This document shows positions 300-39,234 of a stretch of 43,597 nucleotides of DNA, one piece after another (positions within the stretch are counted from its first letter, which is position 1; the number at the start of each line of letters is the position of its first letter). Made by a program: the position numbers and the translations under genes. Where the stretch lies: IMG/VR virus record IMGVR_UViG_2711768020_000006. One strand, written 5' to 3'. A model generated the notes under the pieces. That model saw only the letters and a list, made by a program, of their open reading frames with translations, was not told where the DNA came from and searched no databases. Origin of the DNA: a virus. Its lineage: Duplodnaviria; Heunggongvirae; Uroviricota; Caudoviricetes.

Positions 300-619
300 T
301 CCCGTTACCTTCCGGGATCAAAATTTGGCTGGTTGCCGGTATCACCGATATGAGAAATGGCTTCAACGGCCTGGCTGCGAAAGTACAGACGGCGCTGAAA
401 GACGATCCCATGTCCGGCCATGTTTTCATTTTCCGGGGCCGCAGCGGCAGTCAGGTTAAACTGCTGTGGTCCACCAGTGACGGACTGTGCCTCCTGACCA
501 AACGGCTGGAGCGTGGGCGCTTCGCCTGGCCGTCAGCCCGTGATGGCAAAGTGTTCCTTACACAGGCGCAGCTGGCGATGCTGCTGGAAGGTATCGACTG
601 GCGACATATAACCAGGTGA
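296..619 (+). CDS. tnpB: IS66-family TnpB (orfB)
   Basis: 107 aa; N-terminal IWLVAGITDMRNGFNGL and FIFRGRSG..KLLW motifs are typical of IS66 TnpB. The stop codon TGA (617-619) coincides with the proposed prophage left end, so the C-terminus may be altered. Confidence 0.75.
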   Translation: MIPLPSGIKIWLVAGITDMRNGFNGLAAKVQTALKDDPMSGHVFIFRGRSGSQVKLLWSTSDGLCLLTKRLERGRFAWPSARDGKVFLTQAQLAMLLEGIDWRHITR

Positions 620-788
620 ATCATTTGATACCGACAAGGGGTTTAGTGAAAGGAGGTGAAATCACCTGTAAGATACTGAAATAAAACAGGTGATGGCTAG
701 ATGTGCGGATAAGGTCTATTTGATACCGATTGTGCAATAATTAGTCATTTATTATAAAATCGGCAACTCATTTGATACTGTGGTTTTA
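617..788 (+). repeat. Prophage left end (attL-like): three transposase-binding-type repeats at 624-632, 719-727 and 771-778 (TTTGATAC core), plus a 9-bp inverted repeat ATCACCTGT/ACAGGTGAT (661-669 / 686-694)
   Basis: Motif seen directly; the spacing (one terminal site, two sites ~100-150 bp inside) mirrors Mu L1 versus L2/L3. Confidence 0.6.
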
Positions 789-852
789 GTCTTTTAAGGC
801 GTTCCAAACAATGCGAAATACTCGATATAGTGCAAAATGCGGGCTAATGCTA

Positions 853-1398
853 TTAACCCGCTTTTGGTTCTACCGCGTTAGATTTGCGACTTCTCTCAGT
901 TTCTTCCAAAATCTCTCTGACGCGTTCGTCAGACATACCTTCAAGCTGTAATGCAGCTATTCTTTTCCTTCCTTCTAAGCGGATTAGATCTTGATTTTCA
1001 GGCTCTAACAACCGAGCTAAGTACTTGGCTCCATTCAGAACCAAATTTTTCGATAGCTGCTCTAAGTCTTTTTCATCAAGTGCGCTGATAATCGTCATAA
1101 TTATCTTCTTGCTTTCATCTTGATTTTCCTTGATCTCACACCGATTCACTTGTGATGCATCACTGAATCCACATAGCCACTCAACACTTACTCCTTCGAT
1201 AGACGCAATCTGAAGGGCGACACTTAAGGATGGCTCAGTGCCACGAGACAGATAATTGTTTAGTGTTGAAAATGAAAGCCCCCAATCTCTTGCTGCAGCT
1301 CTGACGCTGCGGGAGCCAATCAGCCTTTTCAGACGCTCAGCAATGCTTTCTTTTCTACCACCAGGAAAAGAAAGAGATGTTGTTGTTTGCTTGTTCAT
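853..1398 (-). CDS. Prophage immunity repressor (Mu c analogue) with a Ner/XRE-like HTH
   Basis: Divergent from ner-A-B at the left end, as in Mu; HTH-like segment SVRAAARDWGLSFSTLNNYLSRG; AGGAAG Shine-Dalgarno 9 nt upstream of the ATG. Confidence 0.6.
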   Translation of the reverse strand: MNKQTTTSLSFPGGRKESIAERLKRLIGSRSVRAAARDWGLSFSTLNNYLSRGTEPSLSVALQIASIEGVSVEWLCGFSDASQVNRCEIKENQDESKKIIMTIISALDEKDLEQLSKNLVLNGAKYLARLLEPENQDLIRLEGRKRIAALQLEGMSDERVREILEETERSRKSNAVEPKAG

Positions 1399-1538
1399 TT
1401 TCTTTTCTTCCTATCAATTTGAAATTATTAACTTTTAGTGTTGTCAGCAACCATTGATCCACAATAGACAAAAGAAAGATGTTTTTTTTGCTTTACATGA
1501 AGCAGAAGTGGATCAATACTTATATCAAACTTGATAAC

Positions 1539-1562
1539 TAAGTTTAGTTATCAAATTTCGTA
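1539..1562. promoter_or_regulatory. Candidate operator: perfect 10-bp inverted repeat TTGATAACTA-agtt-TAGTTATCAA between the repressor and ner
   Basis: Dyad seen directly in the divergent c/ner intergenic region. Confidence 0.5.
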
Positions 1563-1583
1563 ACTTTTTAGGATAGATGAATC

Positions 1584-1814
1584 ATGGCGAGAAATGAAGT
1601 TAAGCCTGATTGGCATCCTCAAAGAATTTTGGGGGAAGTCAGAGCCAGAGAAGGAAGCATGAGGGCGCTGGCCCGTAAAGCTGGCGTGGGTCAGAACAAT
1701 CTGTACAACGCGGTATACCGCCATGTTCCCAAGTATGAGGGGATTATCGCGGAATGCCTGGGGGTGCCGCCCGAGGAGATTTGGCCCAGCCGCTACATTC
1801 GTAAGGTCGCGTAA
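1584..1814 (+). CDS. ner: Ner-like DNA-binding regulator
   Basis: 76 aa; resembles Mu Ner (WHP..., ...LARKAGVGQNNLYNAV..., C-terminal IWPSRY); sits immediately upstream of the transposase. Confidence 0.8.
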   Translation: MARNEVKPDWHPQRILGEVRAREGSMRALARKAGVGQNNLYNAVYRHVPKYEGIIAECLGVPPEEIWPSRYIRKVA

Positions 1815-1816
1815 TT

Positions 1817-37502: not shown

Positions 37503-37669
37503 CAATACAAACCGGTGGTGTCCTCTGCCGGTTTGACACTAATGAAAACATCTTTGCCGCTATCCAGCCATATGTAATCGCTGGATAGTATTTCGTATTC
37601 AGAAATATAGCTGCTTATGGAGCAGTCAATCCTGCTTCCCCATCCGGGCAGGCAAATGAACCGGTATCA

Positions 37670-37963
37670 TTAGTCCGATTCACGCTTTTGTAGAATCGTT
37701 CCCAGAATGCTATACAGCTCATTAGCCTGTTGCTCCATCATTGAGACGGAGGCTATACGGTGCAAAGTGATTTCAGGAGGTGGCACACCTCCATCTTCTT
37801 GCTGTGGAGGAAAAACATAAGATTTAATAAAAAAGTTGAAGCATATGAACTCTCCCGCACTCGAACTGTATTTGCAGGCATCTGAATAATCGGAAAAATA
37901 ATCATTATAGATTTCCGCATTTTCAATCATTTTTCGATTTCTCGTCGTTACATGATTGTCCAT
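37670..37963 (-). CDS. Hypothetical protein, AT-rich, divergent from com-mom
   Basis: 97-aa ORF with AGAGG Shine-Dalgarno; visibly lower GC than the surrounding phage DNA. Confidence 0.45.
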   Translation of the reverse strand: MDNHVTTRNRKMIENAEIYNDYFSDYSDACKYSSSAGEFICFNFFIKSYVFPPQQEDGGVPPPEITLHRIASVSMMEQQANELYSILGTILQKRESD

Positions 37964-38148
37964 AGCAGCCTCTTACGCTGGCAATTAACCAATTGACTTC
38001 TATAAATTAGTTGATTTGTTTGCTTTGCGGTATTCAAATGTACAATCATTCAGCACTTATGCGTTACAGCACCGTTTAAAATTAGTGATCAAACTCATAA
38101 ATTTTCGCTAATGACATTTCGTGTTATTTGTTGTATCAATTAAATAAA

Positions 38149-38175
38149 TCAAATCGATCGTTTTTGTCGATCGAT
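38149..38175. promoter_or_regulatory. GATC-containing inverted repeat (AATCGATCG-n7-CGATCGATT) upstream of com-mom; candidate methylation-sensitive regulatory site
   Basis: Palindrome and two GATC sites seen directly. Confidence 0.4.
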
Positions 38176-38219
38176 TGAGTGATAAAGATATCAACAACAA
38201 AGCAGGAGGTTATGCGGCC

Positions 38220-38420
38220 ATGTATCGAAACATACGGTGCCGACATTGTAACAAGCTACTGGCACGAGCCAGCTTCAGTTATCTGGAAGTTAAATGTCCG
38301 CGCTGTAAAACCCTCAATCAAATCACATCTCAGAGCGCCACAGAGCACCCCACATACACAAGGAAATCCTGTCGTGGGGAACAGAAAGCAAGTTACATCC
38401 CGTATCATCAGCACGCCTGA
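38220..38420 (+). CDS. com: Com-like zinc-finger translational activator
   Basis: [10 protein letters not shown]...KCPRCK resembles Mu Com; AGGAGG Shine-Dalgarno; lies immediately upstream of and overlapping the mom-like ORF. Confidence 0.7.
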
Positions 38421-39111
38421 ACTTATTCACTATAACGACAATATCGTCGGTTATGGCTCCCGTGAGTTACGGGTTGAGACAATAAGTTGCTGGCTGGCCC
38501 GGCTGGTCGTCGTCAATAAACATTACAGCCATCGTTTCGTAAATAATTCCTACCTTCATCTGGGCATATTTTCAGAACGGGAGCTGGTTGGCGTAATGCA
38601 ATGGGGTTATGCCCTTAATCCAAACAATGGTGCACGCGTCGTAACTGGCACGCAGAACCGCGAATATATGGAGCTTAACCGGTTATGGCTGCATGACTGT
38701 ATGCCGAGAAACTCCGAATCAAGGGCAATCAGTTACGCGCTCAAACTAATCAGACAACTTTATCCGCAGGTGCAGTGGGTTCAGTCGTTTGCAGATGAGC
38801 GTTGTGGCTGTCTTGGTGTCGTGTACCAGGCAAGCAATTTTGATTATGTAGGCAGTCATGAAACAACATTCTATGAACTTGATGGCGAGTGGTATCACGA
38901 GATTTGCAAGAATGCAATCAAACGAGGAGGACAGCGAGGTGAACATCTGCGGGCTAATATCGACAGAGCCAGTGTTCATAAATTCCGTCAGTTTCGTTAC
39001 ATCCGGTTTCTGGACAAGAGAGCCAGAAAACGCCTTAACACAAAGCTATTCAAAGTCCAGCCTTACCCAAAACCACAAACAGTTAAAACTGGTTTGAAAG
39101 AGAGTGAATGA
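38374..39111 (+). CDS. mom: Mom-like DNA modification protein (start uncertain; candidate GTG at 38374)
   Basis: Large ORF overlapping the 3' end of com at the prophage right end, as in Mu; the identification rests on synteny. Confidence 0.55.
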
Positions 39112-39150
39112 ACGCTTAAAAACTCATTCTAAAACTCAAAAGAAAAGCGC

Positions 39151-39234
39151 CGATTTAGTATCAAATAAGTTGCGTATCGGCGTTTTTCAGCGGTATCAAA
39201 TGAAATGCAAATCGGTATCAAAAAAATCGCCGCG
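39151..39234. repeat. Prophage right end (attR-like): three closely spaced inverted copies of the end motif (GTATCAAA at 39158-39165, 39192-39200, 39214-39222)
   Basis: Reverse complements match the left-end ATTTGATAC(C) motif. Confidence 0.6.

Follow-up and report, generated by a model that had tools for sequence, protein, structure and literature searches.

The DNA examined here (IMG/VR virus record IMGVR_UViG_2711768020_000006, Caudoviricetes; 43,597 nucleotides, below called the window) carries at 607–39239, on the + strand, a complete Mu-like prophage of 38,633 bp with the termini 5'-TATAACCAGG...CGCCGCGCTATA-3'. It is very probably an intact transposable prophage of the Sp18 type, known from E. 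coli and Shigella, that entered tnpB of an IS66-family insertion sequence (IS) through DDE transposition; its completeness follows from the same termini at other loci, a nearly identical copy elsewhere and an intact set of genes. The left part of the host IS, an ISEc8/ISEc22-like element (1–606, + strand), consists of a tnpA fragment and of tnpB up to the insertion point (Pfam TnpB_IS66 for 296–619). In the right part (39240–39800, + strand) the end of tnpB is followed by a tnpC that has lost an internal stretch, as alignment to intact ISEc8/ISEc22 copies shows; of Pfam DDE_Tnp_IS66 only the C-terminal part is matched. The tetramer GACA is present on each flank (603–606 and 39240–39243), and the junctions, located between 606 and 607 and between 39239 and 39240, read GGCGACA/TATAACCAGG on the left and CGCGCTATA/GACAGCC on the right. 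Comparison with E. coli genomes demonstrates that the IS66 homology of the left flank breaks off exactly at 606. Two uninterrupted ISEc8-like copies have the sequence GGTATCGACTGGCGACAGCCTAAGCGG (GACTGGCGACAGCCTAAGCGG) with GACA present once. Excision of the element together with one GACA restores an uninterrupted IS66 tnpB: the joined flanks align to intact IS66 over 509 bp with 98.4% identity, and the junction is gapless. Since the homology stops at 606, the empty site holds a single GACA and the joined flanks are gapless, the element is 607–39239 and GACA is its target-site duplication. The empty site shows directly that only GACA is duplicated, with no fifth base, and the right-hand copy is confirmed by comparison with other insertions.

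These other insertions were read at the fixed termini, in whole prophages with both flanks or in both ends, from other genomes. Since the termini are fixed by other insertions, the chance of each 4-bp match is 1/256. All 15 insertions of the Sp18 lineage and a sister clade (12 of them firmly paired) have a 4-bp duplication and none a 5-bp one; in each case exactly four bases match and the fifth base is mismatched on both sides. The left terminus is TA in the window (IS66 tnpB, GACA), in the RefSeq genome copies L007 (E. coli 600029, AACA), L008 (E. coli TOE17, citD locus, CATG) and L014 (TTAG), in the IMG/VR pair L039/L103 (AGTC) and in two sister-clade insertions, in mscM (TAAG) and glpT (AGCC). 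It is TG in Sp18 of the Sakai strain (sorM, TAAA), in the records LC727881 (CATC) and LC727895 (AGAG), in the RefSeq genome copies L009 (CACC), L015 (CGAT) and L016 (CACC) and in the IMG/VR pairs L043/L095 (TGCC) and L037/L106 (AACA). The IMG/VR contigs are mostly trimmed or fragmented, and three of nine same-genome pairs matched. No convincing target consensus is seen among the duplicated tetramers in this small sample (n=15). LC727881 and LC727895 are Stx-phage records with 94% nucleotide identity to the window prophage over 83–87% of its first 7.4 kb. Their insert starts 10 bp upstream of the equivalent of 617 with TGTAACCAGGTGAATC and stops 10 bp downstream of the equivalent of 39229 with CGCCGCGCTATA, and the depositors annotate the 4 bp as 'duplication due to insertion of Mu'. 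The sister clade, also from E. coli, has a transposase with ~80% identity and the ends TATAGAGAGG...GCGCGCTTTA. The L008 copy is only 23,456 bp long despite its TA...TA ends and CATG duplication; an internal deletion took its head genes and part of its tail genes.

The positions 617 and ~39229 mentioned above are those at which an earlier reading of this DNA, made without database searches (the sequence-only reading), had placed the ends, 10 bp too far inside on each side. That reading saw no obvious target-site duplication, a statement that does not hold at the shifted boundaries, and it explained the absence either by a deletion or rearrangement beside the prophage or by an end placement off by a few base pairs. 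The latter explanation is the correct one, the actual error being 10 bp at each end. The former, in which the ends lie at 617 and 39229 and the duplication was lost, draws on the pentamers CCAGG (612–616) and CCGCG (39230–39234), which are present as reported and do differ if those ends are taken, and on the internal deletion that does exist in tnpC of the host IS. Both pentamers, however, lie inside the element and are not its flanks: the terminal 10 bp on each side (607–616, TATAACCAGG; 39230–39239, CGCCGCGCTATA) accompany the phage at each of the other insertions that were compared. Moreover, the IS66 target becomes gapless on removal of the element with a single GACA, and the tnpC deletion, ~145 bp off, leaves the junction untouched. 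There is no deletion or rearrangement adjoining the element, and a loss of the duplication by such an event is very improbable. Ends at 617 and 39229 with a 5-bp duplication are ruled out by the other insertions and by the empty site. The comparison with an uninterrupted IS66 copy, which the sequence-only reading had proposed, thus defined the junctions and a single GACA in the empty site; the exact duplication that it had envisaged at shifted boundaries is there, with a length of 4 bp and not the 5 bp expected. It might be argued that the phage does make 5-bp duplications and that GACA is what is left of one after mutation of a single base, given that Mu and DMS3/D3112-type phages yield 5 bp (PMC8705779, PMC11406979). 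Four matching bases in all 15 insertions, each with the fifth mismatched on both sides, and an empty site in which GACA alone is duplicated leave practically no room for this explanation.

A further doubt, whether the window copy is mobile at all, concerns its terminal dinucleotides. The right end is ...GCGCTATA-3' (TA-3') in 14 of 14 readable IMG/VR right junctions and in every genome examined, while most copies start on the left with TGTAACC (Sp18 has TG) and those of the window's sub-lineage with TATAACC. In 60 left-end matches from complete E. coli genomes, a sample spread down the whole ranking of such matches, 54 start at query base 3 and only 6 at base 1 (TA). The terminal CA is important for cleavage in Mu, as known from studies of end mutations. 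The window copy could then be an immobile one, in which the left TG mutated to TA and the terminal CA-3' was lost. This is unlikely, though less so than the two preceding explanations. The TA-left copies occupy at least nine sites (the window, L007, L008, L014, L017, L018, L019, L030 and L039), and every one with both ends available has its own 4-bp duplication; since each of these sites has its own flank, the TA-left variant transposes. Besides, TA-3' is found at the right end of every copy in the lineage, the sister clade and the relatives from Symbiopectobacterium and Sodalis have the termini TA...TA, and all genes of the window prophage are intact. Mu, whose end sequences were compared, starts with TG at either end. 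According to a survey of 2021, every Mu-like or B3-like phage known until then had kept TG-CA ends, and the TA-TA ends of Leptospira prophages were presented there as new (PMC8705779).

The ends of the intact Sp18-type prophage preferred here are organized around the motif ATTTGATACC. With up to one mismatch allowed, the window contains 8 copies where 2.6 would be expected, and none of 100 shuffles reaches 8. Six of the eight copies are located at the ends, all directed inward (+ strand starts 623, 718 and 770; − strand starts 39223, 39201 and 39166), and an independent repeat search returns the same three-copy families with spacings of 95/52 (left) and 35/22 (right). On the + strand, site L1 (motif 623–632) belongs to the left terminal imperfect inverted repeat (607–634), which matches the reverse complement of 39212–39239 at 21 of 28 positions when the two are read off side by side; L2 (ATTTGATACC, 718–727) and L3 (ATTTGATACT, 770–779) follow. 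On the − strand, R1 (39214–39223) lies within the right terminal inverted repeat (39212–39239), and R2 (39192–39201) and R3 (39157–39166) lie further inside. L1 and R1 are equidistant from the termini, the motif starting at base 17 and its TTTGATAC core at base 18. The offsets of the copies from the ends are 18/113/165 on the left and 18/40/75 on the right, compared with 21/126/166 and 21/43 for the core in Mu. The motif count, the repeat search and these offsets bear out the layout described in the sequence-only reading, namely one terminal and two inner sites on the left and three on the right, as in L1/L2–L3 and R1–R3 of Mu. The resemblance to the Mu ends is restricted to this layout: by eye, without a formal alignment and for Mu only (D108 being left out), no evident similarity extends beyond the first few bases, and the motif ATTTGATACCGA read in the same manner beside the Mu core [AG]CGAAA[AG] shows no similarity. 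By their position, the motifs are probably binding sites of the transposase. The spacer between L1 and L2 contains a perfect 14-bp palindrome AGGTGAAATCACCT (654–667), and two AACAGGTGA-like copies are found at 610–619 and 684–693; these might be bound by a bending protein of the host or by a regulator of the phage.

The transposase A (1817–3904, + strand; 695 aa) matches the Pfam families HTH_Tnp_Mu_1 (1.3e-8) and Mu-transpos_C (2.1e-17) as well as the transposase family phrog_310 (1.5e-211). It aligns colinearly with MuA (23% identity, E 1e-13), D308 falling on D269 and D374 on D336 of MuA. In a search against solved structures MuA is matched only by its N-terminal enhancer-binding domain (1tns, 6.8e-6), and the core matches retroviral integrases. 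The core stretch SDNGS ... QGRGIIERLNR is covered by the alignment of FLYYSDNGS...NPQGRGIIERLNRTL with KAIKTDNGS...NSQGQAMVERANRLL of Rous sarcoma virus (RSV) integrase, which places D374 on D121 and E414 on E157. The catalytic residues are therefore predicted to be D308, D374 and E414, with 40 residues between the second Asp and the Glu against 56 in MuA. NCBIfam gives weak, sub-threshold matches to IS481 and IS3 transposases. Judging from these comparisons, A appears to have a Mu-type domain architecture built around an integrase-like core, which makes a different spacing in the active site, and hence a different stagger, plausible. The same 4-to-6-bp variation in stagger is known among retroviral integrases. 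Next to A lies the gene of a MuB-type AAA+ target-DNA activator (3987–4919, + strand; Pfam Phage-MuB_C and AAA_22), 48% identical to Mu B. Outside the lineage, the closest transposases in deposited phages are those of Pseudomonas phage VW-6B (47%) and of the D3112/DMS3 group (~30%). In a large protein search, all 120 matches listed are at least 79% identical, which is too little diversity for predicting a structure.

The gene content and its integrity can be judged directly by comparison with the prophage L007, which is located in E. coli 600029 at a different locus, in another gene, and is 99.7% identical to the window prophage over the full length; all 55 coding sequences of L007 have intact counterparts in the window. 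Its RefSeq (PGAP) annotation begins with the repressor, Ner, A and B, continues with Gam, Mor and the genes for lysis, head and contractile tail, and ends with the invertible tail-fibre segment, Gin, accessory genes, Com and Mom; no site-specific integrase is annotated among the 55 genes. Pfam recognizes the MuA-like transposase (N- and C-terminal domains), MuB, Ner, Gin, Com, Mom and an XRE-type repressor. This gene set and its Mu-like order confirm the assignment to Mu-like prophages made in the sequence-only reading.

The immunity repressor (853–1398, − strand) has an XRE-type helix-turn-helix N-terminus (Pfam HTH_3; phrog_3037 transcriptional repressor, 4.5e-60) and no similarity to Mu c in BLASTP. 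Its C-terminal half matches the phage repressor family phrog_7148, whose own N-terminal part matches the N-terminus of the transposase. The immunity module is a mosaic: among the relatives that share these ends, of which L009, L014, L015 and L016 were compared at this position, at least four repressor types occur. At least three of their repressor genes are unrelated to that of the window. A Ner-like early regulator (1584–1814, + strand; Pfam HTH_35, 1e-21) stands between the repressor and A. The region 4922–33682 (+ strand), onto which the PGAP annotation of L007 was mapped, extends from the semi-essential early genes through the tail genes and comprises Gam (6272–6802), Mor (10179–10601), the lysis genes, the portal (15158–16747), the major head protein (19968–20915), the tail sheath (22576–24078), the tape measure (25071–27128), the baseplate and a tail fibre (32248–33129), all on the + strand. 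The invertible tail-fibre segment (32770–34102) is bounded by 86-nt inverted repeats (32770–32855 and 34017–34102) and is followed on the + strand by a Gin-type serine invertase (34173–34745; Pfam Resolvase, 1.6e-51, and HTH_7), by an accessory SASA-type carbohydrate esterase with a DUF6645 domain (34831–36885; domain match, phrog_143) and by the com/mom DNA-modification module (38220–39111; com 38220–38420, mom 38374–39111, in coordinates transferred from L007; Pfam Mom, 1.6e-77).

An 80-nt tRNA-like gene (18064–18143, − strand) is situated between the genes for head morphogenesis and virion morphogenesis. It folds into a cloverleaf with a canonical T arm and an enlarged anticodon-arm region. 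Its score against the Rfam tRNA model, 31 bits (gathering threshold 29), is obtained only when the filters are permissive; neither the default Rfam scan nor ARAGORN detects it, and PGAP labels it tRNA-OTHER in relatives. The Mom protein of one relative is annotated as 'tRNA(Gly)-dependent adenine aminoacyltransferase', and a link between the tRNA-like gene and Mom is conceivable.

The tnpC deletion of the host IS (~1.08 kb, at ~39384) is independent of the phage insertion. The remnant (39330–39788) encodes 152 aa in frame and in its C-terminal part shares 99.6% identity with an ISEc22-type copy. The IS66 element itself lies within a truncated lambdoid tail-fibre gene (39842–43339 region), resulting in a nested arrangement of a phage inside an IS inside a prophage. 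A tail-fibre assembly gene is found downstream, together with the gene of an IpaH-type NEL E3-ligase effector with the leucine-rich repeats of type III secretion (41624–43339, − strand). Since the IS66 adjoins the tail-fibre assembly and IpaH-type effector genes, a Shigella or enteroinvasive E. coli background is suggested.

Taken with the homologies of its proteins, the architecture of the prophage points to the following course of insertion. The 695-aa A protein would bind the six inward-directed ATTTGATACC sites, i.e. L1 with the distant L2 and L3 on one side and R1 and R2, 22 bp apart, with R3 on the other. It would pair the two ends, which would be nicked or exposed at the 3' TA. Assisted by the MuB-type ATPase, the 3' ends, which in this copy are ...TA-3' on either strand, would then attack target phosphates 4 bp apart; filling of the gaps by repair or by replication would produce the GACA duplication. 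The end points of this course, namely the junctions, the duplication and the positions of the sites, are seen directly, while homology suggests how A binds and acts and what B contributes. The length of the duplication would correspond to a 4-bp stagger that the geometry of this transposase determines.

Several points weigh against this interpretation. The exact insertion was not found in 5,426 complete E. coli genomes, and the empty site is taken from other IS66 copies. Three IMG/VR pairs are weaker than the other insertions, as they were matched by genome identifier and by the 4-bp match itself. A has no match to Pfam DDE_2, the core of MuA, even at E values up to 5, and its core obtains only rve-type Pfam hits with E ~0.004–0.008, far below the cut-offs. 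The binding of A to its putative sites is modelled from motif position and analogy with Mu, and the window copy is known from its sequence alone.

The phage type is already known, and what made the window puzzling is the boundary error combined with the expectation of the 5 bp of Mu. The 4-bp duplication is already annotated in two GenBank records. The 4-bp stagger and the TA termini nevertheless depart from the rules for Mu (5 bp) and B3 (6 bp) and seem to be under-described. No paper linking a Mu-like phage with a 4-bp duplication, or giving the duplication length of the Sp18 type, was found in searchable full text, which does not cover Morgan et al. 2002 (J Mol Biol), where the ends of Sp18 were reportedly analysed. 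It is possible, with chances that we put a little short of even, that the Sp18 type, the E. coli sister clade and probably the Sodalis/Symbiopectobacterium relatives constitute a Mu-architecture lineage with an integrase-like transposase, a 4-bp stagger and TA-3' ends, and thereby a third duplication class undescribed in the literature. If this is true, the determinants of stagger length in DDE transpososomes could conveniently be studied with such a natural Mu-like system (4-bp stagger, TA ends) as the point of comparison. For annotation, the rule is that Sp18-type prophages, present in ~4% of complete E. coli genomes, end with T(G/A)TAACC...GCGCTATA and are flanked by 4-bp duplications; tools seeking TG...CA and 5-bp repeats misplace their borders, as happened in the sequence-only reading.

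The ~4% corresponds to 233 of the 5,426 complete E. coli genomes, in which the left end is found at 284 places. When one genome per species was scanned with a degenerate pattern of either end type, related ends, all starting with TATA and lying mostly at the ends of contigs, came up in a Symbiopectobacterium metagenome-assembled genome (MAG; L164–L175), in Sodalis endolongispinus (L163, L165) and in Pantoea persica (L173); a single match in Methanobrevibacter is a chance one. In the insect symbionts left- and right-type ends are found many times over, often ~113–139 bp from contig ends, and the Symbiopectobacterium assembly contains multiple copies. The position of these ends at contig breaks suggests a multi-copy Mu-like element that breaks assemblies.

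By the broad features of transposable phages used in the 'Saltoviridae' proposal, the prophage belongs to this group: a DDE transposase and an AAA+ activator stand beside the repressor and Ner at the left end, the length of 38,633 bp is within 36–40 kb, and the 284 places with 15 exact duplications agree with insertion at many unrelated sites with a short duplication. It is also of the Sp18 type in the strict sense, with near-identical ends, the same gene order and a transposase of more than 90% identity. The Sp18 prophage of O157:H7 Sakai, the type member, has been known since 2001. It is described as Mu-like and apparently intact, and its DNA is packaged into phage particles without circularisation (PMC2669165); Sp18-related copies occur at strain-specific sites (PMC7430833, PMC10132054). 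The Sakai record NC_002695.2 gives Sp18 as a feature at 5040971–5079729 (L010/L011), which starts one base inside the TG and ends five bases past the TA, and thus does not coincide with the junctions set by the TAAA duplication. The window prophage has in common with Sp18 and the Sp18-like phages of Shiga toxin-producing E. coli (STEC; LC727881, LC727895) the end sequences, the layout of the sites, the right terminus ...CGCCGCGCTATA, the 4-bp duplications and the gene order, and their transposases are 93–94% identical. It differs by the left dinucleotide (TA instead of TG in Sp18), by the allele of the immunity repressor and by the insertion site, IS66 tnpB being new relative to Sp18-type prophages. 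In L009, L015 and L016 parts of the tail region are only 76–82% identical to the window (Sakai Sp18 was compared at the ends alone).

The similarity to Mu includes the order c-ner-A-B...gam, mor, lysis, head, tail, an invertible G-like segment with Gin and com/mom, the 48% identity of MuB, the Mu-type N-terminal enhancer-binding domain of the transposase, and the arrangement of three putative sites per end, with one terminal and two distant sites on the left and R1 and R2 22 bp apart. In contrast to Mu, with its 5 bp and TG...CA, the Sp18 type has 4 bp (15 of 15) and T(G/A)...TA. Its transposase, which has the N-terminal DNA-binding and C-terminal domains of the MuA family, is 23% identical to MuA without a match to DDE_2 or the D269/D336/E392-type spacing of that core (40 residues from D to E instead of 56). 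The end motif and the repressor are unrelated to those of Mu (the latter to c), and megablast gives no match to Mu. R3 of the window has the same direction as R1 and R2, whereas in Mu the R3 site is inverted relative to them. The nearest transposases outside the lineage connect the prophage with Pseudomonas fluorescens phage VW-6B (47%) and with D3112, DMS3 and MP22 (~30% over 89% of the length for the D3112 type). These phages, however, are siphoviruses with other structural genes and another host genus, and DMS3 is treated as making 5-bp duplications (PMC11406979). With B3-type phages and the Leptospira prophages the window prophage shares a duplication different from 5 bp and, with the latter, the termini TA...TA (PMC8705779). 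In a 2021 survey the duplications are 5 bp for Mu and 6 bp for B3 (PMC8705779); the B3 and Leptospira elements combine 6-bp duplications with transposases of the B3/Tn552 family, whereas the window prophage combines a 4-bp duplication with a transposase of Mu architecture.

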